Part shown: positions 4,959 to 45,764 of the stretch, one piece after another | Position numbering within the stretch: the stretch's first letter is position 1 | Layout of the letters: every line of letters begins with the position of its first letter | Source of the DNA: a virus | IMG/VR virus record: IMGVR_UViG_3300045988_137032 | Location: 128,001 to 192,000 of that record | Reading direction: 5' to 3' (one strand) | DNA: 64,000 bases | Notes under the pieces: generated by a model | The model's input: the letters and a program-made list of their open reading frames with translations, nothing else | Told to the model about the DNA's origin: nothing | Database searches by the model: none | Made by a program: the position numbers and the translations under genes

Positions 4959-5000
4959 CATATCATAGTAGACGGTTAAATATGAAAGGATGTGTTTACC

Positions 5001-5282: not shown

Positions 5283-5284
5283 TT

Positions 5285-5560
5285 ATGAAAGTTTATGCTA
5301 TTATTTCCACTTATGCATCAAATCCTGAAGCTGAGCTTGAATCTATTGCTTATTCTAGTAGAGAGAAAGCGATTGCGTATTTGTATTCATTATGTGATAA
5401 ATATAATGCATGGTGTAGAAAATCATCTTATCCAGAGCAGCGTACTCGGATATATGAAGTTGATGAAATTAACGGCGCCATCTATTATAAATACATTGAC
5501 TCTTTAAATCGTGTTTCTCGTATTGATGAAACATGGATTAAAGAATTAGAGGTAGAATAA
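5285..5560 (+). CDS. Small hypothetical protein, paralogue 2 of 3
   Basis: 91 aa, 2-nt spacing from the previous gene. It shares the MK(V/I)Y..I start, a LY.LCD.YN core and the WIKELEVE end with the previous gene. Confidence 0.65.
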   Translation: MKVYAIISTYASNPEAELESIAYSSREKAIAYLYSLCDKYNAWCRKSSYPEQRTRIYEVDEINGAIYYKYIDSLNRVSRIDETWIKELEVE

Positions 5561-5562
5561 TT

Positions 5563-5766
5563 ATGAAAATTTATGTTATCGTATGTAGAAATAACTATTC
5601 CACGTGGATAGATGATAAAACCTTTACTGAAGAAGCAGAAGCATTCCTATATGCTTACCGTTCAATTTCAAGTCCCGTAATGTGGAAAGTATGTCCGATT
5701 AATGTTGATATCTCTAATGAGATGAGTGTTTCTGACACACTACTTGGACAAAATAAGGATGTCTAG
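5563..5766 (+). CDS. Small hypothetical protein, paralogue 3 of 3 (shorter)
   Basis: 67 aa, MKIYVIV.. start, 2-nt spacing. Confidence 0.55.
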   Translation: MKIYVIVCRNNYSTWIDDKTFTEEAEAFLYAYRSISSPVMWKVCPINVDISNEMSVSDTLLGQNKDV

Positions 5767-5992: not shown

Positions 5993-6544
5993 ATGATGGA
6001 AATAAAAGAAGCCATTGTGGAAGCTTGTAGTAATAGTCTCATTACTGCAACAGAAGCAATGCAGTTATTTTCCATTATAACGGAATCCGAAGTAAGTGAA
6101 GTTGATAAAGACTTTAAACCAAAAGAAAGTATGAAATTATCATCTTTTCAGAAAATCCATATTACAGAATCCATCACAGAAGAATACAAAAGTAAATATC
6201 CGGATCTAAAGCATGTAAGATGCAAAGATACGGATACATACAAGTGTGATGGATATATGTGGATGGACGGAGAAAATCTAGTATGCCATGTAGGATCATG
6301 TGAATACTTGGATGATAAAACAAAATGGATCGTATCGTTAGAAATAACGAAAAACTATAAAGGTCATGGATTATCAAAACAACTGATTGATTATGCTGTG
6401 AAGAATATGAAATGCAAATATCTATCAGTGGATAAGAGCAATAAACTCGCAAAGATGATCTATGACGAATATGGGTTTAAAGTATATCAAGAAGACAAGA
6501 AAATGTATTATATGACACTGGATAAAAATCCAGTAAAATCATGA
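5993..6544 (+). CDS. GNAT-family acetyltransferase with CTS-like N-terminus
   Basis: N-terminus is MMEIKEAIVEA. GNAT motifs are ITKNYKGHGLSKQLIDYAV and SNKLAKMIYDEYGFKVY. An AAAGGAGG RBS precedes it. Confidence 0.7.
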   Translation: MMEIKEAIVEACSNSLITATEAMQLFSIITESEVSEVDKDFKPKESMKLSSFQKIHITESITEEYKSKYPDLKHVRCKDTDTYKCDGYMWMDGENLVCHVGSCEYLDDKTKWIVSLEITKNYKGHGLSKQLIDYAVKNMKCKYLSVDKSNKLAKMIYDEYGFKVYQEDKKMYYMTLDKNPVKS

Positions 6545-6565
6545 TGAAAGGAGAATATAGCATAT

Positions 6566-7648
6566 ATGGATTGGATGAAATTACAACTTTCTATTTATGA
6601 AAGTTATTCCAATGGTGATATTACAAAAGACGCATGCGATAGTCTTATCAATTCCATCTATAATAAGATTGGTGATAGTATCGTTGAAGAAGCAGAAAAT
6701 GCTGAAAACGAATTCATCAATACTTCACTTAACGTGCTTACTGAAAATACTCATGATAGCAATTTACTTATGGAAGCAGCTAATACGTTCGCTGATAAAG
6801 TAAAAGCATTATGGGAAAAATTTAAAGCGTGGCTGAAAGCTTTAATTAATAGGCTATTTGGCAGAAAAGAAAAACCTTCCGGGAAAGTAAATGGTCCGAA
6901 AGGTTTAATGAATGCTTTAAATACGCTGAAATCGAAAGTGAAATCACTGAAAGGTGCTACTGGAGCTAAGGTAGCAGTAGCTATCGGTGGTATTGCAGTT
7001 TCTATCGCTGGTGTAAAGAAAGTTCTCAGCAACAAAGGCGATACAGAAGAAGTAGATGCTAATGCTGTAGATAAATCTTGTAAAGATATCATGGATGGTT
7101 GCCAATCAGTATCTGAAGATCAATCCAAAAAAAAAGGTACTGTGGATAAAGAGAATCCTGTATCAAAAGTTATCAAAGCACTCCGTGATACTGCATCATT
7201 AATTGGAAGTGTTGTGAGTGGATTGATCCATCGCAAGGCTTCCAATCAAACTGAAAATAAAGCGTCAAATAATCCAGTTCTTAGTAAAGAATTTATGGAC
7301 GCAATCAATAAGAAAGATAATCTTGCTGTAAAGATTATGATTAAGGATGCTATTGTTTTTGATGCCACAGACACAAAAGGGATTCGTAGTGTTCCTCCTA
7401 TGCTTTCAGAAGCTAAGAAGAGTACTCCTGAAATTTTTGACAACCAAGAAAAATTCGATGATATGACAGATGATAAGTCCAAATGGACAATGGATTATAT
7501 GAATTTGCATCTTGTGAAATTGATGAGTGGTAACTTCACGGAAGAGAATATTCATTATCTTGAAAAAGTTGCTAAAATAGCGATGAATAATAATTCTAAG
7601 AAAGATACTACATCAAAATCTTCTGATAATGATAAAGAAAGGGGATAG
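6566..7648 (+). CDS. CTS-like family protein (long N-module, type A)
   Basis: Starts MDWMKLQLSIYESYSNGDIT and has the helix ALWEKFKAWLKALINRL plus a hydrophobic segment AVAIGGIAVSIAGV. Contains an in-frame A9 tract at 7127..7135. Confidence 0.7.
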   Translation: MDWMKLQLSIYESYSNGDITKDACDSLINSIYNKIGDSIVEEAENAENEFINTSLNVLTENTHDSNLLMEAANTFADKVKALWEKFKAWLKALINRLFGRKEKPSGKVNGPKGLMNALNTLKSKVKSLKGATGAKVAVAIGGIAVSIAGVKKVLSNKGDTEEVDANAVDKSCKDIMDGCQSVSEDQSKKKGTVDKENPVSKVIKALRDTASLIGSVVSGLIHRKASNQTENKASNNPVLSKEFMDAINKKDNLAVKIMIKDAIVFDATDTKGIRSVPPMLSEAKKSTPEIFDNQEKFDDMTDDKSKWTMDYMNLHLVKLMSGNFTEENIHYLEKVAKIAMNNNSKKDTTSKSSDNDKERG

Positions 7649-7653
7649 GAAAA

Positions 7654-8685
7654 ATGACAAATTTACAGCACGCTATTATGGAAGCTTCCAATTCAGATCT
7701 CATCTCATTTGAAAATGCATCAATGATGCTTACTATGTATGAGTCTGATGGTGAAGAAAAGGACACTATGGCCGATAAGATTAAAAAAGCTTGGGAGGCA
7801 TTTAAGAAATGGCTTCGTGACCTTATCAATAAGCTTACTGGTAAAAAGATTAACGACCGTGAGGTTAAAGTTCAGGAGCATAAGTGGAATGCTCTTAACA
7901 AATGCGCAAGCTATGTCAACAAAGCAGCGTCTAAGAATTTTACTGATGAAGATTCTGATGATGATCCTGTGATTGATAATCTTTTCATTGCATCAGAGTA
8001 TTTTACTGCAAAGACAGCAATTTCTCAGAAGATGGCAACTGTTACAGTCCAAGAGGTTCATGATCTGACAGTTAAAATTCATAAAGATCTTGATAAGATC
8101 ACTGAGAAAGCTGAAAATGGTACTCAAACACAGAAGAAGACCACAATGATGTATGTGCGGAAGATTTCCAATAACGTAACCTCTATTGAGAATCAGTGCA
8201 CGTCTTCTGATCATGCAAACTATGACACTGCTATTAAGCGTGCTTATCAGGATTATTTCGATAAGAATGTCAAGGACTATATGTACGTGCTGAATCTTCA
8301 GCTGATGTGCTCTAATGAGGGTCGCCCTGAAGATGACGATGGCCGATATGATTCGAAAGCCGACGCATATCGAGATTTCTGTCAGTCAATTAAAGCAAGA
8401 ATTGACGCTGAGTATTACAGAATTTCCAGAAATCCCGATATTGCAACTACCGAGGAAGAGAAGGCTAAACTACAAAAGGATCTTGAAGCTGGCAATGTGT
8501 CCGGCTATGCTGGTGATGTAATAAATCTTGCTAAGTTTGTTGGTAAGTGCTGCTCTCAGGTTAAAGCAAATAATTCTAGTAGCCTGAAGACAAAGTCTGG
8601 TAAGATTTATGATGAATATCATAAGATTATCAATTATCTTGCCTTCGAGATGAGATGGTGCAGGAATGCCAGACTGACTCACTAA
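7654..8685 (+). CDS. CTS-like family protein (short N-module, type B)
   Basis: Starts MTNLQHAIMEASNSDLIS and has the helix KKAWEAFKKWLRDLINKL. Confidence 0.7.
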   Translation: MTNLQHAIMEASNSDLISFENASMMLTMYESDGEEKDTMADKIKKAWEAFKKWLRDLINKLTGKKINDREVKVQEHKWNALNKCASYVNKAASKNFTDEDSDDDPVIDNLFIASEYFTAKTAISQKMATVTVQEVHDLTVKIHKDLDKITEKAENGTQTQKKTTMMYVRKISNNVTSIENQCTSSDHANYDTAIKRAYQDYFDKNVKDYMYVLNLQLMCSNEGRPEDDDGRYDSKADAYRDFCQSIKARIDAEYYRISRNPDIATTEEEKAKLQKDLEAGNVSGYAGDVINLAKFVGKCCSQVKANNSSSLKTKSGKIYDEYHKIINYLAFEMRWCRNARLTH

Positions 8686-8695
8686 CAACTTATTT

Positions 8696-8744
8696 AAAAA
8701 TACACGTCTTATTAGTGATAATACTAATAAGACGTGTATTTTTT
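8696..8744. terminator. Bidirectional intrinsic terminator between convergent genes
   Basis: AAAAATACACGTCTTATTAG ... CTAATAAGACGTGTATTTTT. Confidence 0.85.
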
Positions 8745-8746
8745 AA

Positions 8747-9616
8747 TTAAGAACGGACAACAAGATCTTTACCATTTCCAATAATACGATGACCGTTTTT
8801 ATCGAAAACGTCTGTTTCCGGATTTACGTATACTCGTTCAACAGGAACTGGTTTATTACTAAAAACACTCGGAAGAGATTCCACCCAAACAAGAATCCGA
8901 TGGAGAGTTCGAATCAGCTTACCTGTATTGGTTTGATCGCAATAATGTTGCTCAAGAGTAGAAATGATCTTATTGATACTCTTCTTGATGGTATCCACAA
9001 TACCAATCAGAGCAGCAACACCAACAAGCACCATGCCTTTCGAAATACGAACGGCATCAACTCCTGCAGACACTGTAGTCCAACCGATCATACCGCACTG
9101 AACCACAATCTCCAAAAGGTTTTTATACCAGGCTTCATCATCAATTGAACGTTTTGCTTTCTTGATATCCTTAGCAGATGGACTATCATTCGGATAAAAG
9201 AATTGAGTTACCTTAGCCGAAATATCAATAAGACTCTTATCAATATTTTTCAGAAGATCAACTGCTGCTTTCGGGAGAGAAACCTTTTCTTCACGCTTAC
9301 GTGCGCCAAGCTTTGTAAGAAGTTTGTCCCAAAGTTCAGATACCCATTTCTTAAACTTCGCAAGTGCATTGGAAACCTTCTGGCCGAAAGTTTCTGCTTT
9401 CTTTTCAAAATATGCACATGCAGCATCACCGTTTGCATAGTCGATAGCAGTCTCAATGAAAGTGGATTCTGCAAGATTCATTTCTGAAATAGCTTCTTCC
9501 ATATATGAAGATGATTCAGAATCAATCATATTCATAAGATCAAGTGCTGCCTCTGATGAAATAGATCCATCAGATGCGCCCTCATAAATCATAGATTTCA
9601 AATCATAAAAATCCAT
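8747..9616 (-). CDS. CTS-like family protein (type A)
   Basis: Starts MDFYDLKSMIYEGASDGSIS and has the helix ALAKFKKWVSELWDKL. Confidence 0.7.
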   Translation of the reverse strand: MDFYDLKSMIYEGASDGSISSEAALDLMNMIDSESSSYMEEAISEMNLAESTFIETAIDYANGDAACAYFEKKAETFGQKVSNALAKFKKWVSELWDKLLTKLGARKREEKVSLPKAAVDLLKNIDKSLIDISAKVTQFFYPNDSPSAKDIKKAKRSIDDEAWYKNLLEIVVQCGMIGWTTVSAGVDAVRISKGMVLVGVAALIGIVDTIKKSINKIISTLEQHYCDQTNTGKLIRTLHRILVWVESLPSVFSNKPVPVERVYVNPETDVFDKNGHRIIGNGKDLVVRS

Positions 9617-9676
9617 AATTATATATCTCCTTTCTAGTTTAAATATATTAAGACGCTTATATTGATGTTTTCTGAT

Positions 9677-9723
9677 AAAAATGACTGAGAATAATTGGTT
9701 TTATTATTCTCAGTCATTTTTTT
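9677..9723 (-). terminator. Intrinsic terminator
   Basis: AAAAATGACTGAGAATAAT ... ATTATTCTCAGTCATTTTT, with A/T runs on both sides. Confidence 0.8.
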
Positions 9724-9725
9724 AG

Positions 9726-11129
9726 TTAAGACCAATTACGAGTCCTGAAAGTCTTCTGCATAACACAACCTTCATACCCACAAAGCATAGCGCGAGCAAT
9801 CTGGAGATCATCAACACACTTTACAATACCTTTGATTGCATCTAAATCATATTTCACATGGTTCTGGTTTTCAATATATCTGTATTTTTCAACAGCATCA
9901 GTTGCTTTCTTAGCGCGAGCAATCAATTCTTTTCCGAGATTGCACACATCACCAGACCCTTTCCTAAGATCCGCAGCATACCTATCAAAACTCGGGTCAC
10001 TGCTACCATAGAAATTTTCGTCGGTTTTATAATAAATCCCTTTAATCAGCTTTTCGCAATTATTATATGCACTCTGTACGAGTTTGGAATCGCTTTGCCA
10101 TTTTCCATACTGCTTTAAATATTCACCATAGAATGGTTTATTAGGATCCTGCCGTGACATCAATCTAAGATATTTATGGCAATCACCAATAGAAGCGTCA
10201 ACCGACTCATATACACCGTCAAAGTCAATACTCTTAAGGAATTCCTTTGCAGCAATACGTGCCTCTTTAGAAACCTTAGCGTCAGCAGCCTTACCAGCTT
10301 CCGTACTCATAGGAAGCATGAGAACAACTGCGTTACTTACAGCATCTGCTACAGATGCAGCAGCCTGAACAGCAGAAACAGCTGCAGAAGGAGAAGGCTT
10401 ATTATCTTCTTCTTTCTTCGCTGCGTTATTCGGTGCCTGAACAGGTGTGTCCGTCTTGTTATCATGAAGAACTGTCCTACTATCACGGCGAGCAAGATCT
10501 TCATAAGTCTTCGGAGTATGGTTTGAACTTTCTTCAGAAATAGGCTTTGCCGCGTCTGAATCAGCTACAGCGCTCGATGCCTGTGCAATCTCACCAGAAA
10601 TCTCAATGATTCTCACAGGCTCAACTTCTTCAGTAGGACCTTCAACTTTCTTGGAAGGCTTCAGCTTCTTAACGATCGCAACTGCGCCAACAACAGCTGC
10701 CAGCGCGGAAGCAATAGCAACTGCACCTTTAGCGCCCTTAAGCTTATTAAGACCATTCTTAAGCTGTTCAAGAGCCTTCATAAGTCCCTTAGGAACTTTA
10801 ATCTTACCCTTCTTAGCCTTCTTGGATCTGCCAGTGATCTTGTCGATAATACCTTTGACCCACTTCTTAAACTTTTCCCAAAGAGCACGAACCTTATCAC
10901 CGAAGGTCTTAGCTGCTTCAACAACGATATCGGTATCAATGCTTGCTGCCGACTCCATGATATTCATAGTAGAATCAATGAATTCGGTTTCAGCATGCCG
11001 CATTTCACTTACGATATCTTCGCCACGCTTGTTGTCGATGCTACAAATCATCGACTCACAGACAGCTTCTGAGATATCACCACATTCACATCTCTCATAG
11101 AGAGATAACTTAAGAGTATAATAATCCAT
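9726..11129 (-). CDS. CTS-like family protein (type A)
   Basis: Starts MDYYTLKLSLYERCECGDIS and has the helix ALWEKFKKWVKGIIDKI plus a hydrophobic segment AVAIASALAAVVGAVAIV. Confidence 0.7.
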   Translation of the reverse strand: MDYYTLKLSLYERCECGDISEAVCESMICSIDNKRGEDIVSEMRHAETEFIDSTMNIMESAASIDTDIVVEAAKTFGDKVRALWEKFKKWVKGIIDKITGRSKKAKKGKIKVPKGLMKALEQLKNGLNKLKGAKGAVAIASALAAVVGAVAIVKKLKPSKKVEGPTEEVEPVRIIEISGEIAQASSAVADSDAAKPISEESSNHTPKTYEDLARRDSRTVLHDNKTDTPVQAPNNAAKKEEDNKPSPSAAVSAVQAAASVADAVSNAVVLMLPMSTEAGKAADAKVSKEARIAAKEFLKSIDFDGVYESVDASIGDCHKYLRLMSRQDPNKPFYGEYLKQYGKWQSDSKLVQSAYNNCEKLIKGIYYKTDENFYGSSDPSFDRYAADLRKGSGDVCNLGKELIARAKKATDAVEKYRYIENQNHVKYDLDAIKGIVKCVDDLQIARAMLCGYEGCVMQKTFRTRNWS

Positions 11130-11150
11130 AGTTAATTTACCTCATTTCTA

Positions 11151-12392
11151 TTACATCAGTCCACGAGATTTACATACAGACTTCAAAGATTTGATCTGTC
11201 TAGCATATGCGTCAACTTCACGCTTATACTTTGTATAACGCGTCGCTTTATTTGCTTCCTTATCGCCAAGATCCATATCCTTCGACTGCTTATAGAATTC
11301 CTCGATAAAGGTATCTGCAGAATCAAAACAATGAGAGATAATAATCTTTTTCGTTGAATCCGAGATGTTCTTATCATTCATAAGACGAGTAATGTTTGCA
11401 ATACTCTTACGGATAACAGGGCCGCTGTATGTATATACAGAAAGGAACGATTGGACCATGGTGTCAGACCACTTTTTATACTCAGGACTATTCCGTTCGA
11501 ACTTCATGACAGCGTTCTTATATTTATTTCCCATCAAGGTGAGATCCACAATGAATTTGCTATGGATCGCCATGACCTTGTCATATTCATCATTCAGCTT
11601 CATGTACTTAGCCAGTTCAGCATTATATTCTGATGTGCCGGTTTTGTATTTCGACATTTCGCTATTGACTTCAGACATTTTACTTTCGAGATCATTGCAC
11701 TTAGCATAATTTCCGCTATCATTATATTTTTTAATGAAAGCATCCATCTTTTGCTTAATAGACTCGGCTTCAGAACCAATAGGTTTTTCACCAGCTTGTG
11801 CAGCGTTCATTTGATTGATCATATAATTAGTAATGCCTTTGCGCTCGTCTTCGGTTTCAGCTAAAACGATACTAGCAATAGCACTATTGCACAGCGAAAT
11901 AATTGGACGAAGAATCTTGATAATCTTACTATCACCATTCTTCGCTTCCAGATCATTCAGTTTACCTTCAATTTTAAGAAGGTTATCTTTAATGCCAGAA
12001 ACGATATCATCACTATATGCAACGACCATTGCCGTAGTAAAAGCAAAAGTTGAAATACCGATAGTTGACAGGGTTTCCAGCTGTTCGGAATCATAGGGAG
12101 GCTTAAGATACTTAATGACATCATCAGTAAGTTTCTTAACCTTCTTCAGATCATAACGAACACGAGTTTTGATATCACCCTTACCAGTCAATTTCAGCTT
12201 TACTTCCGAAATCTTATTCTGGATTTTTACAACGATATCATGGACCCACTTCTTAAAAGCTTCCCATGCTTTCTTCAGTTTTTCTGCAAATGATTCAGAC
12301 TCATACATCATCGAAATCATCTGGTTTGCTTCAGAAATACTAATCAATCCTGAACTTGATGATTCAAGGATTGTGCATTGTAAATCAGTCAT
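11151..12392 (-). CDS. CTS-like family protein (type B)
   Basis: Starts MTDLQCTILESSSSGLIS and has the helix KKAWEAFKKWVHDIVVKI. Confidence 0.7.
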   Translation of the reverse strand: MTDLQCTILESSSSGLISISEANQMISMMYESESFAEKLKKAWEAFKKWVHDIVVKIQNKISEVKLKLTGKGDIKTRVRYDLKKVKKLTDDVIKYLKPPYDSEQLETLSTIGISTFAFTTAMVVAYSDDIVSGIKDNLLKIEGKLNDLEAKNGDSKIIKILRPIISLCNSAIASIVLAETEDERKGITNYMINQMNAAQAGEKPIGSEAESIKQKMDAFIKKYNDSGNYAKCNDLESKMSEVNSEMSKYKTGTSEYNAELAKYMKLNDEYDKVMAIHSKFIVDLTLMGNKYKNAVMKFERNSPEYKKWSDTMVQSFLSVYTYSGPVIRKSIANITRLMNDKNISDSTKKIIISHCFDSADTFIEEFYKQSKDMDLGDKEANKATRYTKYKREVDAYARQIKSLKSVCKSRGLM

Positions 12393-12477
12393 GTTATAAC
12401 CCCTTTCTTATAGATTAAAGCGTTATAAACCTGTTTTCACTATACAACCAGGATTAAATGTAAAAAATCGTTTTTAT

Positions 12478-12519
12478 GAAAGGAGAGTTACCCATACTAA
12501 AATAGGTAACTCTCCTTTC
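12478..12519 (-). terminator. Hairpin downstream of 12523..13239, possible terminator
   Basis: GAAAGGAGAGTTACC ... GGTAACTCTCCTTTC. There is no clean U-tract. Confidence 0.4.
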
Positions 12520-12522
12520 ATA

Positions 12523-13239
12523 TCATTTCAGATTCAAAGGAAGCATATAAGCATATTTCAGCTTATCAACGATCTTGGATTCTTTTATACATTTCAAAAG
12601 CATAGCATAATATTGCGGATCCGGATATTTACAGTCAGCTTCATCCTGAATCTCCGAATAAAACGCCTGTAATGTCATATCCACATTTGAAGAAATATAT
12701 GTGTAGATTGATCTAGATACGACTACTTTATCAAAACCTTGATTTGCAAAAAGTGGAATTTCCATAGCATGCTTAAACTTAATTCCACCGCCAAATATAC
12801 TGGTTCCTAAATAAATGCCTTCGGTAATCATATCTTTACCTTTGTATGCATTCATGTAGCACTTAATGGTGTCGTTAAGTTCGTCACATTCACAATTTAT
12901 GAGTTGATCTTTTATATCCATAGCGGTTTTAAACATGATCTTTGTACTGGTTGGTTTTGTCATGTACACATCATGATCATATGGATCATCATTAGGATAT
13001 TTCTTACAGATACTAATAGCTCTTTTGTATTCACGGTCTAAATTCTTAAAGAATCTATCAATATCAGCAATACGATCATCTACAACCTTTTTATAGTTAT
13101 CATATAAAATTTTCTTGTATTCGTCAGTAAGGAATGTTTCAGACCCTTCTGTAACCATAGTAAACATGGAAGCCGCTTCATTAGATGAAATGAGATCATC
13201 TTTCATAGCTTCCATGATAGACATTTGTAAATTTGTCAT
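12523..13239 (-). CDS. CTS-like family protein (type B)
   Basis: Track ORF 12523..13317. I moved the start to M27 (MTNLQMSIMEAMKDDLIS), behind AAAGGAGA. Confidence 0.65.
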   Translation of the reverse strand: MTNLQMSIMEAMKDDLISSNEAASMFTMVTEGSETFLTDEYKKILYDNYKKVVDDRIADIDRFFKNLDREYKRAISICKKYPNDDPYDHDVYMTKPTSTKIMFKTAMDIKDQLINCECDELNDTIKCYMNAYKGKDMITEGIYLGTSIFGGGIKFKHAMEIPLFANQGFDKVVVSRSIYTYISSNVDMTLQAFYSEIQDEADCKYPDPQYYAMLLKCIKESKIVDKLKYAYMLPLNLK

Positions 13240-13350
13240 TTTATATCTCCTTTCATAAGTTAGATACGTTAAGAAAACGTTTTTTTTTGTCTTGTATAGC
13301 GATTTCTCATACGACAATTAGTTATACATAGTTACTATAGGAGGGTGCTC

Positions 13351-14550
13351 ATGATGTATGATATAACGAAATTAATTACGCCTCATCTTAAATTCATTTA
13401 TCAGGATAATGAACTATCTTCTCTTGAATATTCCATCTCCGGGTTTGATGAGGAAGGAAATATTCCTGTTGATATTTCAAATCCTATCTTTGAATGGAAT
13501 CCTTTTGAAGATATGATTTTCTCTGATATAAATGAGGGAATTGAAGCATTGATGGCTTTTGCTGATGCAATTCATGCTACATCACAAGAAAACCGTTACA
13601 ATAAAGATTCTTATCAGAGAACGCATGATAAGTATAAATTTATCAATGGTATTTTTGATTTCTCTGCAAAGATTATTTGTGGTGGAATTCATGGATGCTT
13701 TATTGATATTACACGAATTGATATGGATATTCCGGGTACTCTTCCTCATAAGAAAGGCGTACTCATTAATGGGAATACGGATCAATACTATTCCTCTTTT
13801 GGGAATTCATCCATTATTCGTGTATCGGAAAATGGTTCATGGAAATTCATTGATAACTTCCAACAAATGGAGTTTTCTTCTTATGAGAATGCTGCAAAAG
13901 TGATTAGTTTCTTAATTGGAAGAAGTACCAGTAAACTTGCTAATGATAAATACATTTTTCCTGGATATGATGGGAGAATTATTAATGTCAATGAATCAAC
14001 GAATCTCTTTACAGGAGCATTTGATAATCTTTCTCGATATACTCCGTATACAATAACGGGAATGTATCTCATGAGAATTGATACAACTTATCGTGTATTT
14101 CCTATTTGTGAATCACGGTATCCTATTGCCAATACAGTAGTACCGAATAATCACATTGTGATGGATCCTGTTACAAAAATCGTATTGGATAGTTTCCATA
14201 ATCTTTACAGAATTCGTAAGATTTATCCCGATGGTACTATCTACGGAACAGAGATTTCCAATCAGATGTATTCAGAAGAAATTTCTTTGACCATGTATCC
14301 ATATTCCTCTCTTGATAATTTCAGGAATGTGGTAGATCAGTTCTTAGGAGATGGATATACCGTTATTGAATCAGCATATAATAATGATGGAAAAGAAATT
14401 CATCGTATTTGGACTATTTCCAATTATGAAAAGAAAACCACATGGAACTATATGCTGATTGCAAAAAAGATTTCTTATAATAATGACTTCGTAACAGTTT
14501 ATTATCCGAAATTCATTGATACAAGAAACAATGCCCTCATTATCGATTGA
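13351..14550 (+). CDS. Hypothetical protein
   Basis: Track ORF 13345..14550. The ATG at M3 is 6 nt after TAGGAGG. Confidence 0.6.
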   Translation: MMYDITKLITPHLKFIYQDNELSSLEYSISGFDEEGNIPVDISNPIFEWNPFEDMIFSDINEGIEALMAFADAIHATSQENRYNKDSYQRTHDKYKFINGIFDFSAKIICGGIHGCFIDITRIDMDIPGTLPHKKGVLINGNTDQYYSSFGNSSIIRVSENGSWKFIDNFQQMEFSSYENAAKVISFLIGRSTSKLANDKYIFPGYDGRIINVNESTNLFTGAFDNLSRYTPYTITGMYLMRIDTTYRVFPICESRYPIANTVVPNNHIVMDPVTKIVLDSFHNLYRIRKIYPDGTIYGTEISNQMYSEEISLTMYPYSSLDNFRNVVDQFLGDGYTVIESAYNNDGKEIHRIWTISNYEKKTTWNYMLIAKKISYNNDFVTVYYPKFIDTRNNALIID

Positions 14551-21314: not shown

Positions 21315-21360
21315 AAAATACAGGCTATACTAGAAATAGATCTAGTATAGCCTGTATTTT
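21315..21360. terminator. Bidirectional intrinsic terminator
   Basis: AAAATACAGGCTATACTAG ... CTAGTATAGCCTGTATTTT. Confidence 0.85.
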
Positions 21361-21431: not shown

Positions 21432-22259
21432 TTACGTATTAGCCCTATATTTAAGGATGTTGAGGTCATCAGACTGATCTTTGTATCCATGAACAACTGC
21501 ATGTGCTTTACGCGGATCCTCACCTGCAATTAAAGAAAGCGCGCCATATGTAGCATCCATAGCTCCTCCAGCAACACAACGTAAAATAAATTTTACAATA
21601 TCTTGAACGAATCCTATTGCTTTTCTAAGTGCATCAATGCATTTAGATGATTCCTTATTCGGGTCATTTGATTCTGATTGTTTTTCTGCATGTTTTTGCA
21701 TATCTCGAGACATCTGTTCAGAATCCTTAAGAATTTTTCCCAAGGTATCACCACCAACATAGTCGAAACGGACATCATCTGAAAGTTCACGCTCATGCTT
21801 TATGTAACTGATAAAACTTAAGCTGCTAACAATAGCAATTGCTTGAGCATATCCTGATGATGACCCACTTATTAAGTTATGAACTGCAGTTTTTAATTGT
21901 GAAAACTTTTCACGAAATCCTTTTGGAAGTTTATATTTTTTATCATTTTTAATATTAGGCTTTTTATTAAAAATCCTATTGATAATAGATTTAATCCATT
22001 CCGCAAATTTTCTCCATGCAGCTTTAATTTTATCGATAAACGTAGAAGCTGCCTCTGTCATTACATAGAAGTCACTTTCTTTATTTACGACAGACATGGA
22101 AGATTCAATGAATTCATTTTCAGCAGATGCTGCTTCACTGATGATTGAATCTACATATTTCTCATTGATTGTTTCAAGCATATCACATGCTGCATTCTTT
22201 GTAATTTCACCATTTTGATAACTTTCATAGATAGAAAGTTCCATATCTCTAAAATTCAT
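21432..22259 (-). CDS. CTS-like family protein (type A), outlying copy
   Basis: Starts MNFRDMELSIYESYQNGEIT and has the helix AAWRKFAEWIKSIINRI. Confidence 0.7.
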   Translation of the reverse strand: MNFRDMELSIYESYQNGEITKNAACDMLETINEKYVDSIISEAASAENEFIESSMSVVNKESDFYVMTEAASTFIDKIKAAWRKFAEWIKSIINRIFNKKPNIKNDKKYKLPKGFREKFSQLKTAVHNLISGSSSGYAQAIAIVSSLSFISYIKHERELSDDVRFDYVGGDTLGKILKDSEQMSRDMQKHAEKQSESNDPNKESSKCIDALRKAIGFVQDIVKFILRCVAGGAMDATYGALSLIAGEDPRKAHAVVHGYKDQSDDLNILKYRANT

Positions 22260-22535
22260 AGAAATACCCTCACCCTTTCAAATGGATAATTGTATGATAA
22301 ATATTAAGAATGTGTTTTTTTTGGTAATATTAGCAATTCAACGTTTTTATATCTCGTTACATCGCTCCCTAGTTATAGAAATTACAGCTATAATCAGGGA
22401 GCGAAGCCAGATTTTCATTCATCGGAGACGGCCGATGTGCTGCACCGATGTATTTAAAATCAACAAATGGTGGTGTATACATTGTAGGATTTTATATAAA
22501 TTAACATTGCACTAGATCACAAATATACTAAAAAT

Positions 22536-24442: not shown

Positions 24443-24874
24443 TTACACATCCACATAAGGGCCATATGTAGCGCTCATACCTTCAGGATCTGGATAATTC
24501 ACAAATTTAAAGCTTAACTGAACTGCATCAGCTTTTCCAGTATTCTTAACCTTACTCTTGAAACGGTTAAGAATATCTTTTTCTTTATAGTACGGATCAA
24601 TACTAAGTTCGATTTTCTTATCACTATGAGTAAGCTTTGTAGTGATTTTAGGATCACCTGATTTAAGATTATCAATTTTGATGAATACTTTCACTGTATC
24701 CTTTGGAAACTTTCCCTTTCCGAAGTCATCAAGTAAGGTATTTGCAAACTGAGTAAATGCATTATCATCTGGCCAGTCATCCTCATTACTCAATATCTTA
24801 AGTTTCTCAACAACGAAATCACCATCCACAAGGCCTTCTTTATATGCTTCAAGAATAGCTTCTTGTAAGTCCAT
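24443..24874 (-). CDS. CTS-like family protein (type B), outlying copy
   Basis: Track ORF 24443..24958. I moved the start to M29 (MDLQEAILEAYKEGL), behind AAAGGAGA. Confidence 0.6.
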   Translation of the reverse strand: MDLQEAILEAYKEGLVDGDFVVEKLKILSNEDDWPDDNAFTQFANTLLDDFGKGKFPKDTVKVFIKIDNLKSGDPKITTKLTHSDKKIELSIDPYYKEKDILNRFKSKVKNTGKADAVQLSFKFVNYPDPEGMSATYGPYVDV

Positions 24875-24999
24875 TTTATTAATCTCCTTTCTATAAGTAT
24901 TTTCATTAAGAAATTGTCTTTTCCTATAAAATACCCTGAAAAACAAATAGCTAATCATACTAACTTAGTATAATAACTCATGAAAGGGGATAAACCAAA

Positions 25000-27658: not shown

Positions 27659-27882
27659 ATGAAATTTCTGGTATCGTAATTGGTATTGCAGGAATTCCAT
27701 TCCTCATTGCATCAATCGTTTTATTGCTTCCAACATTTAGCAATATGGCTTATTGTGTAGTGTGGTTTTTACGCGATTACATAATCAATCCCATTTATGA
27801 TACAATTCATGATTTCGTTTGTAGTTGTGTAGAATCACATCACAGACGTGAAATCCATAAGAAAGGAGGTTTTCGAGATTGA
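27640..27882 (+). CDS. Small membrane protein
   Basis: 80 aa with GIVIGIAGIPFLIASIVLLLP. It overlaps the neighbouring genes. Confidence 0.55.
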   Translation: MVELSVDEISGIVIGIAGIPFLIASIVLLLPTFSNMAYCVVWFLRDYIINPIYDTIHDFVCSCVESHHRREIHKKGGFRD

Positions 27883-28721
27883 TTGAAGCAGTTCCGATGA
27901 AAAGATCTCTTTTTAATTCCTTTATGTTTGAAGCTCCTGGTGATGAAGATGATGGGAAGGTATCCGTTACTGTAGCACCTAGAGCAAACCGTGGTAACGA
28001 TTACGGTGATGATACCGTGAAAGCTACTGTAAGACCTACTGCTGCTCGTGGTGCTACTGACTATGGTGCAGACGACGATGCAGAAGATACTCCCGATGAT
28101 ACTCCAGACGCTCAGGATGCTGGTGATGATACCACAACCGATGATACTGGAGATACCGATGAAGGAGATGATACTGATGCCGATACTGCAACAGACTATG
28201 GAGCAGATGATGACGACGATGGCACCGGGGATACTGGTGATGAGTCTGGTGATGATGGTGATTCAGCACCCGAAGGCGATGCTGGGGATGATACTGATTC
28301 TCCTACGGACTATGGTGCTGATGACGGTGGCGACGATGGGTCTGATGCTGGTGGTGAAGATGACTCAGGCAATTCAGGGGACGGTAATAGCAATGGGAAT
28401 AATAAAGGCGAAGCACTTCGTAAGTTCCATATGTATGCTCGTTTCCAGCATCTTTACAACGTAATCGAAACTTTCATTGAGAAGATGAGAGATGTCGTGA
28501 AGGATGACCCGACACAGAATGCTGTCATCAAACGTGTTACTACGAATTTTACAAATCTTTATGATAATCTTTATGATTTCATGATGGTAAAATTCTCCCG
28601 TGCATCATACGTAGAATTGCTCGTCTATATGGAACAGGCCGTTGCAATTTGCAAACTCAACTTCGAATTGCTTAAAAACAACAGGATTGAGCTAAAACAG
28701 TATCCTAACGATTGGAAATAA
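27879..28721 (+). CDS. Acidic scaffold-like protein with (T/N)DYG(A/D)DD repeats
   Basis: The N-terminal ~170 aa are D/G/T-rich with four DYG repeats. The C-terminal ~100 aa look helical. It lies immediately upstream of the putative capsid gene. Confidence 0.5.
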   Translation: MIEAVPMKRSLFNSFMFEAPGDEDDGKVSVTVAPRANRGNDYGDDTVKATVRPTAARGATDYGADDDAEDTPDDTPDAQDAGDDTTTDDTGDTDEGDDTDADTATDYGADDDDDGTGDTGDESGDDGDSAPEGDAGDDTDSPTDYGADDGGDDGSDAGGEDDSGNSGDGNSNGNNKGEALRKFHMYARFQHLYNVIETFIEKMRDVVKDDPTQNAVIKRVTTNFTNLYDNLYDFMMVKFSRASYVELLVYMEQAVAICKLNFELLKNNRIELKQYPNDWK

Positions 28722-28798
28722 CCAACTCCAATTTGTAATGGATTTCTATTACATATGAGTAATTCTTTTAATTCTATAAGAAAAGGAGCGAATTCGCA

Positions 28799-30541
28799 AT
28801 GAATAATCATCTGAGTTTTCTGACCGAATCTTCCAAGGGCTTCCAGGAGACCCCTACCATTGGTAGCTTCTCTCTGGGTGCACAGAAGAATGAGTTTGAT
28901 ACCGTTTTTGAGCAGGCATGTAATGAGCTGATGGCTCAGGGTATTGATGCTAAGATCAATATCAATGACCTGGTTCAGAATAAGCCCATCTACGAGGCTT
29001 ATCGTGATGCCCTGCTTTCTAACCTGAAGGATGACTGTGAGAATTTCCAGGATGTTGCAGAGGGCACCCGTTATGCTACTCTGTACGAGCAGACCGAGGC
29101 TATGCTGGATAACTGCCGTGCAGACCTGCTGCAGGAGTCTACCCGCGTTGGCCAGCTGCTGCCCATTAAGGCAGTTGACTTCCCCGTTCTGATCAAGCAG
29201 AACCTGGCTCTGGCTTCCAAGGATATCATCCAGACTGAGGTCACCAAGACCCCCGTCATCAAGAAGCACATCGAGCGTCGTTGGGTCGTTGATCCCAAGA
29301 CTGGTAAGCGTTGGGAGTATCCCCAGTGCTTCTTCAAGGATGAGTTCACTGATATCTTCAACGCTGGTAAGGGTCTGCCGATTAAGGATACCGATGTTGA
29401 TATTACCGCTGGTAAGTGCTTCAACTACAATATCCCGAAGAACCTGACCGATACCACTGATTATACCCGTGAGCACATCACCTTCGATCTGAAGATCGTG
29501 TCCGCTAAGGTCACTACCGATGATGGTGATAAGGACTTCCCGCTGGAGATGCGCATCAACATGTCCGATAACACCTGGCTGGGTGGTCAGATTAAGGACG
29601 AGAAGACTGGTGAGATCATCGATGTGATCACTGGTACTGTCGACTTCCTGGCCAACAACGTCTGCCTGTCTTCTGCTGCTGGTAAGGTCAAGAGCGTTAA
29701 GTTCGGCGGCTACCTGAGCAACGAACTTAACGAGCGTACTGTCACTTGGGATCGCACCCGTGAAGAGTACGAATGGAAGATCGAGGACGGCTTCCGTGTG
29801 GATATTCCGTACTCTCTGGAGGAGCTGGAGGATGCAAAGGCTCTGATGGATATGGATCTGTACAAGCTGACCTACAACGATCTGTCTGACATTCTGGTTC
29901 AGATGGAGGATAGCCAGATCCTGAAGTATCTGGATGACCAGTACACCAAGTTCAATGGCATTGAGCTGGATCCGCTGGGCTTCAACCCCTTCATTCGTAC
30001 CCAGACCTTCGACTGCGATTCTAAGACTCAGACCGTCGCCCTGCAGTCCGAGTACATCCAGAAGATGCTGAAGTTCTACATCGATCGTTTCGTTATCGAC
30101 ATCTGCGATAGCGCTAAGATCGACGATATGACCTTCGTCTGCTATGGTAACCCCCGTTACATCTCCCTGCTTGATCCTGAGGTCAACTGGGTGGTGCGTT
30201 CCGGTGACTCCGTTGGCGGCGTGAAGGCTAACTACAGCTATGGTATCATGAACGCTGCTGGCATGAAGATCCAGGTTGTCTCTACCTACAAGTACAACAA
30301 CAAGGACGAGCGTAAGCTGCGCTTCATCCCCTATCCTCTGCATGACAACCAGTTCACCTTCAAGCACTACAAGTACACCACTCACATTCTGACTGCTCAG
30401 AACAGTGGTTACCGTGCTGCTAACCAGCCTGGTGGCTCCATGACCTACCTGATGGGTACTACCCGTAACACCACCTGCACCATTCAGGGTATTCAGGGTA
30501 GCATGAGCCTGGAGAACACCAACTTCATTCTGGAGAAGTAA
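28799..30541 (+). CDS. Putative major capsid protein
   Basis: 580 aa with very strong codon bias (high-expression style). It follows the scaffold-like gene and has its own strong terminator. No sequence motif was recognised. Confidence 0.5.
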   Translation: MNNHLSFLTESSKGFQETPTIGSFSLGAQKNEFDTVFEQACNELMAQGIDAKININDLVQNKPIYEAYRDALLSNLKDDCENFQDVAEGTRYATLYEQTEAMLDNCRADLLQESTRVGQLLPIKAVDFPVLIKQNLALASKDIIQTEVTKTPVIKKHIERRWVVDPKTGKRWEYPQCFFKDEFTDIFNAGKGLPIKDTDVDITAGKCFNYNIPKNLTDTTDYTREHITFDLKIVSAKVTTDDGDKDFPLEMRINMSDNTWLGGQIKDEKTGEIIDVITGTVDFLANNVCLSSAAGKVKSVKFGGYLSNELNERTVTWDRTREEYEWKIEDGFRVDIPYSLEELEDAKALMDMDLYKLTYNDLSDILVQMEDSQILKYLDDQYTKFNGIELDPLGFNPFIRTQTFDCDSKTQTVALQSEYIQKMLKFYIDRFVIDICDSAKIDDMTFVCYGNPRYISLLDPEVNWVVRSGDSVGGVKANYSYGIMNAAGMKIQVVSTYKYNNKDERKLRFIPYPLHDNQFTFKHYKYTTHILTAQNSGYRAANQPGGSMTYLMGTTRNTTCTIQGIQGSMSLENTNFILEK

Positions 30542-34886: not shown

Positions 34887-34955
34887 GTTTTTCTCTCCTT
34901 TGTTTTCGCTTTCGTAATCGTACAAATAAAGATATTAATTATCTTTATTCACCAG

Positions 34956-42331: not shown

Positions 42332-42358
42332 TACTAAGAAAGGAGCGTGAATTGAATT

Positions 42359-43358: not shown

Positions 43359-45764
43359 TTACTGACCGCCACCCATATCATCCATACCGGACATATCGAG
43401 GTTTTCATCATCAGACTGATCGTTCTTCATGGGATCCATGGAATCTCCCTTGCCTTTGATATTTGCAGCTTTAAAGATCTCTTCGATATGATCGAAGTTA
43501 AGCATTGCAAGTCTATCCTTAGCAAGTTCTTTCTTAAACACGGAAACCTGTGCTGTCTTACCAGCATCATCCTGATAGTTCTGTCCATAGTAAAGACCAG
43601 TCAGGAACTCAGAAAGTGTATTGAAGTTATTCAAAAGATCATTGGTAATATTGCTATTTGCAGTCTTAGGCTGAACGAAATTAAAATGAAGTGTATTGAT
43701 GACTTCATCCGGCATATTCGTAGCATATTTACAAATCTGCCGATAAAGCTGAGTAATTTGCTCATTGTAATCAAGCTGGAACGAAATGACACGACCCTGG
43801 AATCTATTATTTGCAAGCTCCAGTGTCTTAGCAAAGTCAGCTTCATTATAGTAGTTGAGCAAGACATCAGGAACACCAGTACCAGAGACATATGCTTTCT
43901 TCAGCATATCCATCAGATCACTATTGATCTGGACATCCTGACCAGCAAGAATCTCAGTTTCAATACCACGTTCATTTCCCTTACCAGTAGGAATATACAT
44001 CTCGTTGCCCTGACCAATCTTATTGATCAAGGTCGTGTACGAGAACATATCCGCCATGGTAATCTTACGCTCTTGCTTCTTACGAGCAATATCCTGAATC
44101 TTATTGGCGACGTTCTTATCAATACCAGACTGTCTGACGTAGTTGACCTTAGTATCATTACTATTGGTAACGATAGAAAGAATCTTAAAGAGCAACAGCA
44201 TCAGATAAAGTTTAGCATAGAAAAGCGAATCTTCAATGATGGAAACACCATTGCCATGCTCATCTGTATTGATCTTAAACGGCACAATATATTCTTTCGG
44301 AATAAACTGGAAACGAATCCGTTTATTATTCAGCTTATAGTAATTCAATGCTTCCACAATAAGCTTCTTAAACTTCATATTCTCGTTTAAGAACTTCTTA
44401 TTGAATGCTTCTACGATAGAGGATGCAATCATGGAAACGATATTCGTTTCACTGGTATTCATGTCATACTTATCGTAATACATGGTAGAAGTAAGAATAC
44501 CTGCCATAGGAGTGATATCATCTTCCTGTACGTAATAGTACCCGATGATTTCATCCATAATCTTAATAGGGAGAAGATTCAGAGGTGAGATCAATCTTAC
44601 ATAGCAATCCTGAATACTATTGAAAGATTCTGCTTTACCAGTCTTCTTCTTATCAAGAGCTCCCGTACCATTAAATGCATGAACACCAGAATCGATATTC
44701 CGCATAATGGAATTGAAATTATAAGAAGGAGTTTTCTTAGCTTCCGTAACAGACTTCTCTACAAACTCGTTATAGTACTGGCGGTAAGTATCAACACCTT
44801 CTTCCAATACAGGAAGAGGAATAGCATCATTGCAGATAGTGATATTCTCCATGCATGCTTTCAATTCAGAATTCAACTGCTTGGAAGCTTCATTTTTACT
44901 ACTAGATCCATTCCTACGAATGATATCATCGTATTCAGGACAAGATTCTGCTGCTTCCATAATATCTTTCGCAAACTTTGTTTTGCTAAAATCTTTCGTG
45001 TCAGCTTTCTCTGTAATGATTCTATCCAGTGTACGTCCAGCAGCTTCACTATATGCTCTATACTTGCCATCTGCTTTCTCCTTAGAGAAATCAGAGAAAA
45101 TCTTAGAGTAAGGAACTGCATAGACGTAATATTCACCATATTCCAGAGAACGAGGAATAATGAATTCCTTAATCTTCTTCTGAAGATCAAACTTCTTTTC
45201 CACATTCTCAATGATAGGCAGATAATCTTCAGAGCCATTCTCCATATTATCATTATCAATGGTAATCGTACGAGACATGGTACCATCCACAATATCTGCC
45301 GAAATAATAGCATCACGAGTAACAACGATAGCTTGCTTTAATTCAACAAGCTGTGATGCAACTTCATGAAGGTCAGCTTGCTTTATCAGGCGGTTCTTAT
45401 ACTGCTCTGTAAATAAAGCTTGAATCTGACCTTCATCTGTGCCAAAGATATCCTCAAGATCTTTTGATGCACCAGCGATTCGCTTATTATTCTCCGAAAT
45501 AACTTTCGTGATAAAGTCAACGCTGTCTCCACCAGATCCCTTTCGGATATCTGTAATTTCAGATTTAAGTAATGAATTAAAATTATTGACGAGTGAATCA
45601 ACTTTCGTATCTCTCTTAGTACCATATGTCATCGTATTCAGCGAGTCCATCATCTGATTGATATTAGCACTGATATTTCGATTCATACGGTTGATACGGC
45701 CTGCTTGCTGTTTTGTCAGCTGAGGCGCAGAAGCCTCATTAATGTGATCAGGCATGAAATACAT
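43359..45764 (-). CDS. Putative portal protein
   Basis: 801 aa with an acidic C-terminal tail (DDENLDMSGMDDMGGGQ). Size and context fit a portal. The call rests on overall pattern recall only. Confidence 0.55.
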   Translation of the reverse strand: MYFMPDHINEASAPQLTKQQAGRINRMNRNISANINQMMDSLNTMTYGTKRDTKVDSLVNNFNSLLKSEITDIRKGSGGDSVDFITKVISENNKRIAGASKDLEDIFGTDEGQIQALFTEQYKNRLIKQADLHEVASQLVELKQAIVVTRDAIISADIVDGTMSRTITIDNDNMENGSEDYLPIIENVEKKFDLQKKIKEFIIPRSLEYGEYYVYAVPYSKIFSDFSKEKADGKYRAYSEAAGRTLDRIITEKADTKDFSKTKFAKDIMEAAESCPEYDDIIRRNGSSSKNEASKQLNSELKACMENITICNDAIPLPVLEEGVDTYRQYYNEFVEKSVTEAKKTPSYNFNSIMRNIDSGVHAFNGTGALDKKKTGKAESFNSIQDCYVRLISPLNLLPIKIMDEIIGYYYVQEDDITPMAGILTSTMYYDKYDMNTSETNIVSMIASSIVEAFNKKFLNENMKFKKLIVEALNYYKLNNKRIRFQFIPKEYIVPFKINTDEHGNGVSIIEDSLFYAKLYLMLLLFKILSIVTNSNDTKVNYVRQSGIDKNVANKIQDIARKKQERKITMADMFSYTTLINKIGQGNEMYIPTGKGNERGIETEILAGQDVQINSDLMDMLKKAYVSGTGVPDVLLNYYNEADFAKTLELANNRFQGRVISFQLDYNEQITQLYRQICKYATNMPDEVINTLHFNFVQPKTANSNITNDLLNNFNTLSEFLTGLYYGQNYQDDAGKTAQVSVFKKELAKDRLAMLNFDHIEEIFKAANIKGKGDSMDPMKNDQSDDENLDMSGMDDMGGGQ

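Follow-up and report, generated by a model that had tools for sequence, protein, structure and literature searches.

A hypervariable family of late-type genes with a shared N-terminal hairpin in a human-gut jumbo phage: candidate internal head proteins

We analysed a 64,000-nucleotide stretch of virus DNA (IMG/VR record IMGVR_UViG_3300045988_137032, positions 128,001 to 192,000; hereafter the window) that carries nine genes whose products begin with the same N-terminal module and continue with different bodies (Table 1). This family is real, lineage-specific, late-type and hypervariable. Its members are rapidly turning-over late paralogs, and on balance we regard their products as most likely internal head proteins, of the inner-body or ejection kind, with the N-terminal module, a helical hairpin, as the loading element. 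On this view the family is the functional counterpart of the internal head protein families of phiKZ and SPN3US and of the internal proteins of T4, and it is possibly a very remote relative of these. An earlier reading made from the letters of this DNA (the sequence-only reading) had likened the shared start to the capsid targeting sequence (CTS) of T4. We put the likelihood of such a T4-like signal of 10-12 residues, cut after I/L-x-E, at about one in three.

The family and its N-terminal module

The nine open reading frames (ORFs) named in the sequence-only reading are all present at the coordinates and on the strands claimed, and the N-termini quoted for them are exact. Members are designated here by their lower coordinate. 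Each ATG of the family lies 6-9 nt downstream of a GAAAGGAG-type Shine-Dalgarno sequence, a placement that favours the shorter starts at 13239 (g12523) and 24874 (g24443). The public gene calls of the contig that holds this DNA agree in protein length for all members but g5993, for which the call begins at the second Met and is one residue shorter. Membership was assessed by leave-one-out searches, in which a profile of the other eight 36-residue N-termini was run against all six-frame ORFs of at least 40 residues in the window. The left-out member was always the best non-training match, with E-values of 3e-13 to 4e-4 (1.5e-6 for g5993, 2.9e-9 for g12523 and 4.4e-4 for g24443), but of 0.08 for g9726; the top non-family ORF came at E 0.15-1.5. 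The place of g9726 in the family is secured separately by a full-length BLASTP match to g6566 (2e-45). Alignments of the two types of member, A and B, match each other with an hhalign probability of 99.5% (E 4e-23). No tenth member was found in the window, in the 6.5 kb before it or in the 10 kb after it.

A Phi-x-E sequence near the N-terminus is common by chance, and the resemblance could on that account be laid to a chance or gene-calling artefact of biased N-terminal composition in AT-rich phage genes. The leave-one-out profiles, with E down to 3e-13 and no other ORF scoring, refute this explanation, as do the BLASTP and hhalign matches between members and between types. The 53 cluster representatives described below and the strong Shine-Dalgarno sequence before every start also speak against it, and we consider its probability negligible.

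Comparison of the members, the leave-one-out profiles and the loci of relatives all support the earlier view of an unusually large and hypervariable phage family. That the proteins diverge completely after their shared start proved to be an overstatement, in that six members can be aligned over 100-290 residues. An amphipathic helix, K-x5-W-x-K-F-K-x-W, is common to six members; its W-x-K-F-K-x-W core had been recognized before, and the F and the second W are invariant. By hhalign, type A equals type B plus an acidic helical insert of ~40 residues between the module and this helix. The hydrophobic segments noted for several members are Gly/Ala-rich and give hydrophobic 19-mers in g6566 (residues 130-155), g9726 (residues 130-157), g8747 and g11151. 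The isoelectric point is ~4 for the module and 8.3-9.2 for the remainder in eight of the nine proteins. The GNAT domain of g5993 exceeds the Pfam thresholds (Acetyltransf_1, 27.9 bits vs 20.7; Acetyltransf_10, 27.8 vs 23.6; E 3e-6) and matches GNAT entries of the PDB across residues 60-179, and PDB sequence searches with g12523, g24443 and g9726 gave nothing below E 0.1.

The shared element, taken at first for a peptide of 10-12 residues, in fact extends over ~32-35 residues, with conservation running beyond the Glu. It comprises an acidic helix, a G-x-I-S/T loop and a second helix, ~32 residues in all. The capsid targeting sequences of T4 are 10-19 residues long and are cut after L/I-X-E by gp21 (PMC9026906). 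The N-terminal pattern of the family does fit that rule, since all nine members read M...(I/L)-x-E, with the Glu at residue 9, 10 or 12. With conservation reaching residue ~32-35, however, the family lacks the autonomous ~10-residue signal of T4 CTS proteins; the stretch that was likened to such a signal is the first helix of the module, which elsewhere can be found inside proteins, at their C-termini or as tandem copies.

A profile built from the nine modules and searched against 1.84 billion cluster representatives at E<=1e-3 found 53 proteins, and in 34 of these the module begins within the first eight residues. Many phage-like proteins carry extra copies in mid-protein, at the very C-terminus or two to three in tandem (P0007, P0008, P0013, P0017, P0019, P0024, P0026, P0032-35, P0045, P0046, P0048, P0050 and P0052), and bacterial proteins that are secreted or anchored to the cell wall (LPXTG) have repeats of a similar kind (P0015, P0028 and P0029). 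All internal, tandem, C-terminal and bacterial copies retain the equivalent Phi-x-E-(A/S). Because Phi-x-E is kept wherever the module occurs, the conserved Glu appears to be a feature of the small fold. A word-indexed search that started from an alignment of 45 N-terminal residues yielded short fragments only. AlphaFold2 gave an all-helical model of low confidence for g21432 from an alignment of six paralogs (predicted local distance difference test, pLDDT, 49), and a pLDDT of 44 for g5993 alone; the two models agree solely on a helix at residues 3-15, a turn and a second helix. An EF-hand or dockerin assignment for the G-D-I-T loop was rejected, since Pfam does not back it for any of the nine proteins and the Ca-ligand positions are, by eye, unconserved. 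In more distant relatives a small acidic protein of ~100-130 residues, encoded ~4 kb upstream of the capsid gene (L006, 5022-5402; L007, 5337-5669; L008, 5526-5933; all minus strand), has the module at its N-terminus and a half-module at its very C-terminus.

Source phage, late-type promoters and turnover of the locus

The source is a jumbo phage of 262 kb from the human gut and, by its capsid protein and gene order, a distant relative of AR9 and PBS1. The capsid gene at 28799-30541 is found verbatim on ENA human-gut metagenome contig ERZ918917 k127_22657 (261,761 bp), on which window position 1 falls at about position 50,084 (window coordinate + 50,083); the phage is uncultured and known from metagenomes. 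A nucleotide search of 50,697 phage records gave no match to the window, and a tblastn search with g9726 gave none either. The capsid protein has counterparts in Bacillus phages AR9 and PBS1, in jumbo phages of Staphylococcus and in Yersinia phage phiR1-37, with which it shares 24-27% identity. Gene order is as in AR9, running from an acidic scaffold-like protein through capsid, HExxH zincin, TerL, virion protein, tail sheath and tail tube to the portal (on the opposite strand), an exonuclease and DNA polymerase. AR9 itself is a member of the phiKZ-related group of phages with two multisubunit RNA polymerases. Relatives of the source phage form an IMG/VR clade with genomes of 250-262 kb and capsid proteins that are 41-96% identical. 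A strong GAAAGGAG-type ribosome-binding site precedes every gene, and these GGAGG-type sites, the sole basis for naming a host, suggest one in the Bacillota.

Late expression of the family alongside the structural genes is well supported by analogy with AR9, in which the late promoter consensus AACA-(6N)-TA/G was defined experimentally (PMC5312081). The window contains 12 exact copies of a late-type motif, AAACA-N6-TAA, where 4.0 are expected, and none of 100 shuffles reached 12. Each of the 12 points towards an ORF start that lies 18-110 nt downstream of it. Within the family they serve the 5993 operon, g8747, the g11151-g9726 unit and g21432; the remaining copies precede the genes for a 727-residue protein, capsid, a fibre-like protein, a virion protein and the portal, and three others. 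The motif equals the AR9 late consensus, and the family has late-type promoters like those of the capsid genes. One-mismatch motifs before g12523 and g24443 are listed as tentative, because one-mismatch copies are not enriched overall. The late motif stands ahead of a family member and the major capsid protein (MCP) gene in a distant relative (L016), and ahead of family genes in another relative (L108). Sigma-70-like sites are not enriched in the window. An early-type motif, ATATATTAT(A), also seen as (TAATG)ATATATTATA, has ten copies, none of them before a family or structural gene. The claim that each gene has its own terminator gives way to a picture of about four transcription units (5993-6566-7654; 8747; 11151-9726; 12523).

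The content of the locus is exchanged between phages whose core genes are over 90% identical. In a relative (L012/L015) the MCP, zincin and TerL are 96%, 92% and 91% identical to those of the window, and L015 has orthologs of g5993 (97% identical), g6566 (93%) and g7654 (71%). For g8747, g9726, g11151 and g12523 there is no L015 ortholog, the best matches being 35-44% identical or confined to the N-terminus, and for g8747 nothing in L015 exceeds 35% identity. L012/L015 has other family members instead, whose N- and C-terminal parts are in new combinations. L108 has the same locus with the same right-hand border genes, but six different module-bearing genes, in the first of which a type-B module is fused to immunity domains of the SUKH and PoNi types (Pfam E 8e-13 to 8e-21). 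Fusions behind the module in relatives take the form of two SUKH domains or of SUKH plus PoNi. The contigs of P0033 and P0052 are too short for informative gene context. With the GNAT fusion in the window and the SUKH/PoNi fusion in a relative, the earlier suggestion of cargo-like bodies is upheld. A constant tag joined to exchangeable bodies, some of them enzymatic or inhibitor-like, is the strongest argument for a role in delivery or targeting.

Two family members flank the head-gene block. One of them, g24443, sits in the slot where AR9 and other relatives keep the gene for the S77 prohead protease.

Table 1. Family members, head genes, promoter motifs and terminators, in window coordinates
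Feature	Coordinates	Strand	Description or support
Member 1, g5993	5993..6544	+	type B-like: module 1-35, linker, GNAT domain ~60-179; first gene of operon 5993-6566-7654
Member 2, g6566	6566..7648	+	type A: module, second acidic helical stretch, amphipathic basic helix (ALWEKFKAWLKALINRL)
Member 3, g7654	7654..8685	+	type B: module and amphipathic helix, divergent basic C-terminal part
Member 4, g8747	8747..9616	-	type A: module, helix, hydrophobic segment 186-214; own transcription unit
Member 5, g9726	9726..11129	-	type A: module, helix, long C-terminal part; second gene of unit 11151-9726
Member 6, g11151	11151..12392	-	type B: module, helix, two hydrophobic segments, coiled-coil-like C-terminal part
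Member 7, g12523	12523..13239	-	type B: module alone, then unrelated domain; ATG at 13239, 238 residues
Member 8, g21432	21432..22259	-	type A outlier, between DHFR gene and head-gene block
Member 9, g24443	24443..24874	-	type B-like outlier, 143 residues, divergent from 727-residue/scaffold-like/capsid block
Acidic scaffold-like protein	27879..28721	+	just upstream of capsid gene; N-terminus ...SFMFE/AP; weak BLASTP match, AR9 g116, E 4e-4
Major capsid protein	28799..30541	+	N-terminus MNNHLSFLTE/SS; late motif 28695-28708
Portal	43359..45764	-	N-terminus MYFMPDHINE/AS; late motif 45828-45841; BLASTP 1e-34 vs AR9 g128 portal
Late-type motif AAACA-N6-TAA	5956..5969	+	23 nt before ATG of 5993 operon
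Late-type motif	9657..9670	-	40 nt before g8747
Late-type motif	12423..12436	-	30 nt before g11151-g9726 unit
One-mismatch late motif (AAACG...)	13269..13282	-	29 nt before g12523, tentative
Late-type motif	22304..22317	-	44 nt before g21432
One-mismatch late motif (AGACA...)	24906..24919	-	31 nt before g24443, tentative
Bidirectional hairpin terminator	8698..8741	.	common to convergent g7654 and g8747
Hairpin and T-run	9681..9717	-	after g9726
Hairpin	12479..12518	-	after g12523
20-bp hairpin terminator	21315..21360	.	after g21432

Several neighbouring features deserve mention in their own right. In both the window and L108, the hypervariable locus is bounded on its right by three conserved, consecutive plus-strand genes for proteins of 300-400 residues (13345-14550, 14678-15592 and 15605-16495), which match no Pfam or PHROGs family. 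On the other side, at 4992-5766, lies a second, unrelated tandem array of small genes, with three ORFs of 67-96 residues of which two are clearly paralogous; it continues upstream of the window as some ten genes for 90-98 residues on the opposite strand (L104, 2197-5077). A 727-residue protein (25000-27183, plus strand) with a long low-complexity centre rich in Asp, Glu and Lys heads the scaffold-capsid operon behind a late motif. It has no family match, the equivalent slots in relatives hold proteins of 604-673 residues, and it is a candidate core or docking partner of the module. Very long ORFs antisense to capsid (28625-30385, minus strand) and tail sheath (40289-43078, minus strand), in GC-richer stretches, are taken as non-coding artefacts, because the public gene calls there are on the plus strand only and 40289-43078 lacks a ribosome-binding site.

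The copies of ATATATTATA are at 14604, 16572, 18989 (minus), 20316 (minus), 21385, 23061, 30673, 34957 (minus), 45898 and 58449 (minus). All ten, five of which are extended to TAATGATATATTATA, closely resemble the AR9 consensus for early, virion RNA polymerase promoters, given as AAATATATATTAT-(6N)-G (PMC5312081). Most copies precede small non-structural genes, and the core is frequent in many related jumbo-phage loci. Behind one such motif lies a gene (34065-34925, minus strand) for a protein of ~273 residues with a signal-peptide-like N-terminus (MKKFVSMMVALVMCISMFAMPASA), possibly an early product that is secreted or resides in the envelope. The window also encodes a thymidylate synthase family protein (16883-17815, minus strand; PF00303, E 4e-75) and dihydrofolate reductase (DHFR; 20470-20991, plus strand). 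AR9, PBS1 and phiR1-37 are deoxyuridine-DNA phages, and the two genes in a relative of theirs raise the question of which pyrimidine its DNA holds.

Probable internal head proteins and the alternatives

The case for packaging is indirect. Weak matches to internal head protein families are the sole recurrent annotated ones of the family in Pfam and PHROGs. PF12699 (phiKZ_IP) falls on residues 12-116 of the type-A relatives P0037, P0038 and P0040 with E 2.8e-5 to 1.3e-3, the lower value being the best among 42 proteins scanned. The 'internal head protein' family phrog_2497 matches three of ten type-A proteins (best E 8e-4), and g21432 matches it at E 0.0015.

In phiKZ, gp93 is cleaved between E13 and S14; its N-terminal portion lines the capsid's inner face and its helix-rich part has been assigned to the inner body (PMC11297242). 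In SPN3US, families of paralogous ejection proteins lose propeptides by cleavage after A-X-E (PMC5694885, PMC10052503). The N-termini of phiKZ gp93-95 read MSLLKMLDKLSLE/S, MNLNKLLDSLE/G and MTFKLNEYLDSLE/D, and these proteins are laid out as a helix, a G-x-G-I-S/T turn, a second helix, an invariant S-x-E and a basic amphipathic helix. The gp93 start (MSLLKMLDKLSLE/S) and a start from the window family (MDWMKLQLSIYE/S) are alike in being short N-terminal stretches that end x-x-E, and the succession of helix, glycine-containing I-S/T loop, helix and then basic amphipathic helix is likewise found on both sides. The likeness to the phiKZ-type internal proteins (PF12699; phiKZ gp92-97, gp162 and gp163; SPN3US family A, gp53 and gp54) extends to their occurrence in jumbo phages of the same broad lineage, to arrays of paralogs that differ in number from one related phage to another (PMC5694885), and to late-type, helix-rich proteins encoded near head genes, helicity in the window family being taken from low-confidence models. 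There are differences as well. The window family has a compact tag of ~32 residues beginning at residue 1, whereas most phiKZ and SPN3US propeptides have 110-250 residues (PMC10052503), and fusions to GNAT or SUKH/PoNi domains are not described for the phiKZ/SPN3US family in its cited literature.

T4 offers a second precedent. An N-terminus that ends in I/L-x-E at residue 10-12, in keeping with the gp21 rule, is a feature that the window family has in common with IPI, IPII, IPIII and Alt, and IPI has a known anti-defence role (PMC9026906). As in T4, unrelated bodies follow a common N-terminus, an enzyme included (Alt in T4, GNAT in the window family), the bodies are basic and the content of the locus changes between close relatives. 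T4-type phages are known for a plastic, indeed hyperplastic, internal-protein locus. In T4, however, the first 10 residues suffice, while the window family conserves a folded-looking hairpin of 32 residues that is also found at C-termini and in tandem; the phage lineage differs too, and sequence homology is absent. An Asp at position 10 stops processing in T4 but leaves targeting intact. Read as homology, the likeness to T4 internal proteins does not hold, as there is no Pfam or PHROG match and T4_CASP reaches only E 0.063. Phage phiKZ-type internal head proteins are the better precedent.

The MCP and portal of the window themselves begin with 10-residue stretches that end L-T-E/S and I-N-E/A. 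The MCP start is conserved in relatives down to 55% identity, and a Glu is retained at 41-43%. We treat these matches as no more than suggestive, and not significant alone, because [ILMVFY]-x-E ending at residues 9-13 is met by chance in about one protein in eight, by our own estimate.

Several results weigh against a role inside the head, and that chance rate is one of them. The PF12699 matches, at 18.5-22.5 bits, stay short of the Pfam cut-off of 27 and belong to a single, closely related subfamily; among the nine window proteins there is no match to PF12699 at E<=0.1. Comparison with phiKZ gp92-96 by hhalign gave a probability below 1%, a hidden Markov model of gp92-96 run on a 62-sequence set was negative (best E 0.01), and hhalign showed no similarity to the AR9 virion proteins g096 and g115. 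The would-be cleavage site has Glu at P1, but at P3 the family has I/L as in T4, and not the S/A/G of phiKZ and SPN3US; in the phiKZ group a gp175-type protease cuts after S/A/G-X-E. Both AlphaFold2 models are of low confidence. The conserved Glu is equally well accounted for by the fold, so that it is not by itself a sign of a cleavage site and does not prove one; capsid loading and cleavage after the Glu are steps that we infer. Late genes also include non-virion functions.

The protease is a further point on this side. AR9, like two further jumbo-phage lineages that we examined, has the gene for the S77 (T4 gp21-type) protease divergent beside the scaffold-capsid block, and in many related jumbo phages an S77 gene adjoins that for the MCP. 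We looked for it in the window, the window flanks and all loci of the lineage by phmmer with the two exons of AR9 g114, by scanning for the motif GE..HP / S.RG and with an S77 profile, and all three were negative. Neither an S77 nor another prohead protease turned up in the window, the 6.5 kb that precede it and the 10 kb that follow it, together some 80 kb of the 262-kb contig, or beside the capsid genes of relatives. Queries of sequence databases with AR9 g114 and an S77 alignment had only other jumbo-phage lineages among the matches listed, and of the 80 loci kept from 188 in a scan of IMG/VR none was from the window lineage and none had the module; the gene contexts of P0098 and P0160 are those of other lineages. 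A zincin/M48-like HExxH protein is encoded ~2 kb downstream of the capsid gene (32705-33961, plus strand; PF01435, E 3e-4; phrog_2767, E 1.7e-9), syntenic with the 'zincin protease' g118 of AR9 and with its equivalent in the distant relative L016. We set it aside as the maturation protease, as AR9 has a conserved zincin plus the S77 protease.

The negative protease search near the family, together with the conservation of the Glu wherever the module occurs, lends some weight to a different explanation, according to which the module is a general-purpose, SHOCT-like interaction or oligomerization hairpin and the family comprises late non-virion proteins that act in the infected cell. These might be membrane-associated assembly, lysis-timing or superinfection-exclusion factors, never packaged or trimmed. 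SHOCT is a two-helix domain of ~30 residues that occurs in many architectures, sometimes in tandem, and has no established function (PMC3581485). Like the module, SHOCT (PF09851) has two amphipathic helices with a G-x-I-S/T-type turn in ~30 residues, and sub-threshold Pfam matches to SHOCT and SHOCT-like families do occur; none of them is in the nine window proteins, the best SHOCT match being one of 23 bits, against a threshold of 27, in relative P0008. The invariant Glu is in helix 1 of the module and, in our reading of the alignments, after the Gly turn in SHOCT, and the module is mostly N-terminal whereas SHOCT is C-terminal in 89% of cases. The C-terminal, internal and tandem copies in many homologs, the similar repeats in bacterial secreted and LPXTG proteins, and the hydrophobic segments in four to five members also favour a role outside the virion. 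Yet none of the nine members has a signal peptide, five have no hydrophobic 19-mer above threshold, and the hydrophobic stretches that exist are Gly/Ala-rich and lie 100-200 residues into the protein. Fusions of cytoplasmic type (GNAT, SUKH and PoNi) are ill-suited to membrane exclusion proteins, and SHOCT has no demonstrated oligomerization function (PMC3581485). The promoters and neighbourhood that the family has in common with the head genes, and the restriction of recurrent annotated profile matches to internal head protein families, point the other way as well. We consider a non-virion hairpin family unlikely.

A third explanation would keep the proteins in the prohead but not inject them. 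As core or scaffold components, comparable to T4 gp22, gp67 and gp68 or to the capsid-lining parts of phiKZ gp93 and gp162, they would enter the prohead, might be cut, and would serve assembly or stabilization before being degraded or remaining bound to the shell. The all-helical prediction, the coiled-coil-like bodies and the position of the genes next to those for the scaffold-like protein and MCP are compatible with this, as are the small acidic proteins of L006-L008, which have the module at both ends and are encoded beside the MCP gene, and the capsid-lining N-terminal region of phiKZ gp93 (PMC11297242). One would not expect essential architecture, however, to be exchanged so completely between phages whose capsid proteins are 96% identical, a fixed lattice could hardly accommodate nine or more paralogs whose C-termini are unrelated, and the GNAT and SUKH/PoNi fusions resemble cargo. 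For these reasons we regard a purely structural role as quite improbable, and return to internal head proteins that leave with the DNA as the preferred explanation.

A proposed route into the head and its implications

If the family does consist of internal head proteins, its course could be as follows. By analogy with AR9, the genes would be transcribed late, with the capsid, portal and tail genes, from promoters of the AACA-N6-TA type. The acidic module of ~32 residues would act as a portable docking element that carries the part fused to it, whether a basic helical body with amphipathic helix and Gly/Ala-rich segment, a GNAT domain or, in relatives, SUKH/PoNi, to the prohead core or the inner capsid surface. 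A protease of the T4 gp21 type might then cut after a Glu, either at the I/L-x-E in helix 1 or ahead of the amphipathic helix. The cut would free the basic body, which could stay with the DNA and leave with it at infection. More speculatively, members with hydrophobic segments could help to form an ejection conduit, and the enzyme and immunity fusions could be host-takeover or anti-defence factors of the first minute.

We advance only tentatively, as a possibility with the balance against it, the stronger proposal that the hairpin is a natural portable capsid-loading tag in this clade of human-gut jumbo phages and the locus an exchangeable arsenal of injected anti-defence or takeover proteins. 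If this were true, any protein fused behind the hairpin would be packed in the head and delivered with the DNA, be it a GNAT enzyme, a SUKH/PoNi protein or a membrane-active helical protein. SUKH and PoNi domains delivered in this way could neutralize toxin-based defences of the host, and the injection of immunity proteins would add an anti-defence route not described before.

The comparison extends the early and late promoter logic of AR9 to distant relatives in the gut. Should the family prove to act outside the virion, the module would still be an uncatalogued short domain, represented by about fifty clusters at 50% identity. Proteins packaged in the capsid act ahead of any phage gene expression and are hard to recognize from sequence; T4 IPI blocks a restriction enzyme, and the virion RNA polymerase of phiKZ starts transcription. 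If the tag marks packaged proteins, it would supply a sequence rule by which the injected proteome of uncultured gut jumbo phages could be listed, candidate anti-defence effectors with immunity-domain fusions among them, and a compact tag to try for the loading of foreign proteins into large capsids.

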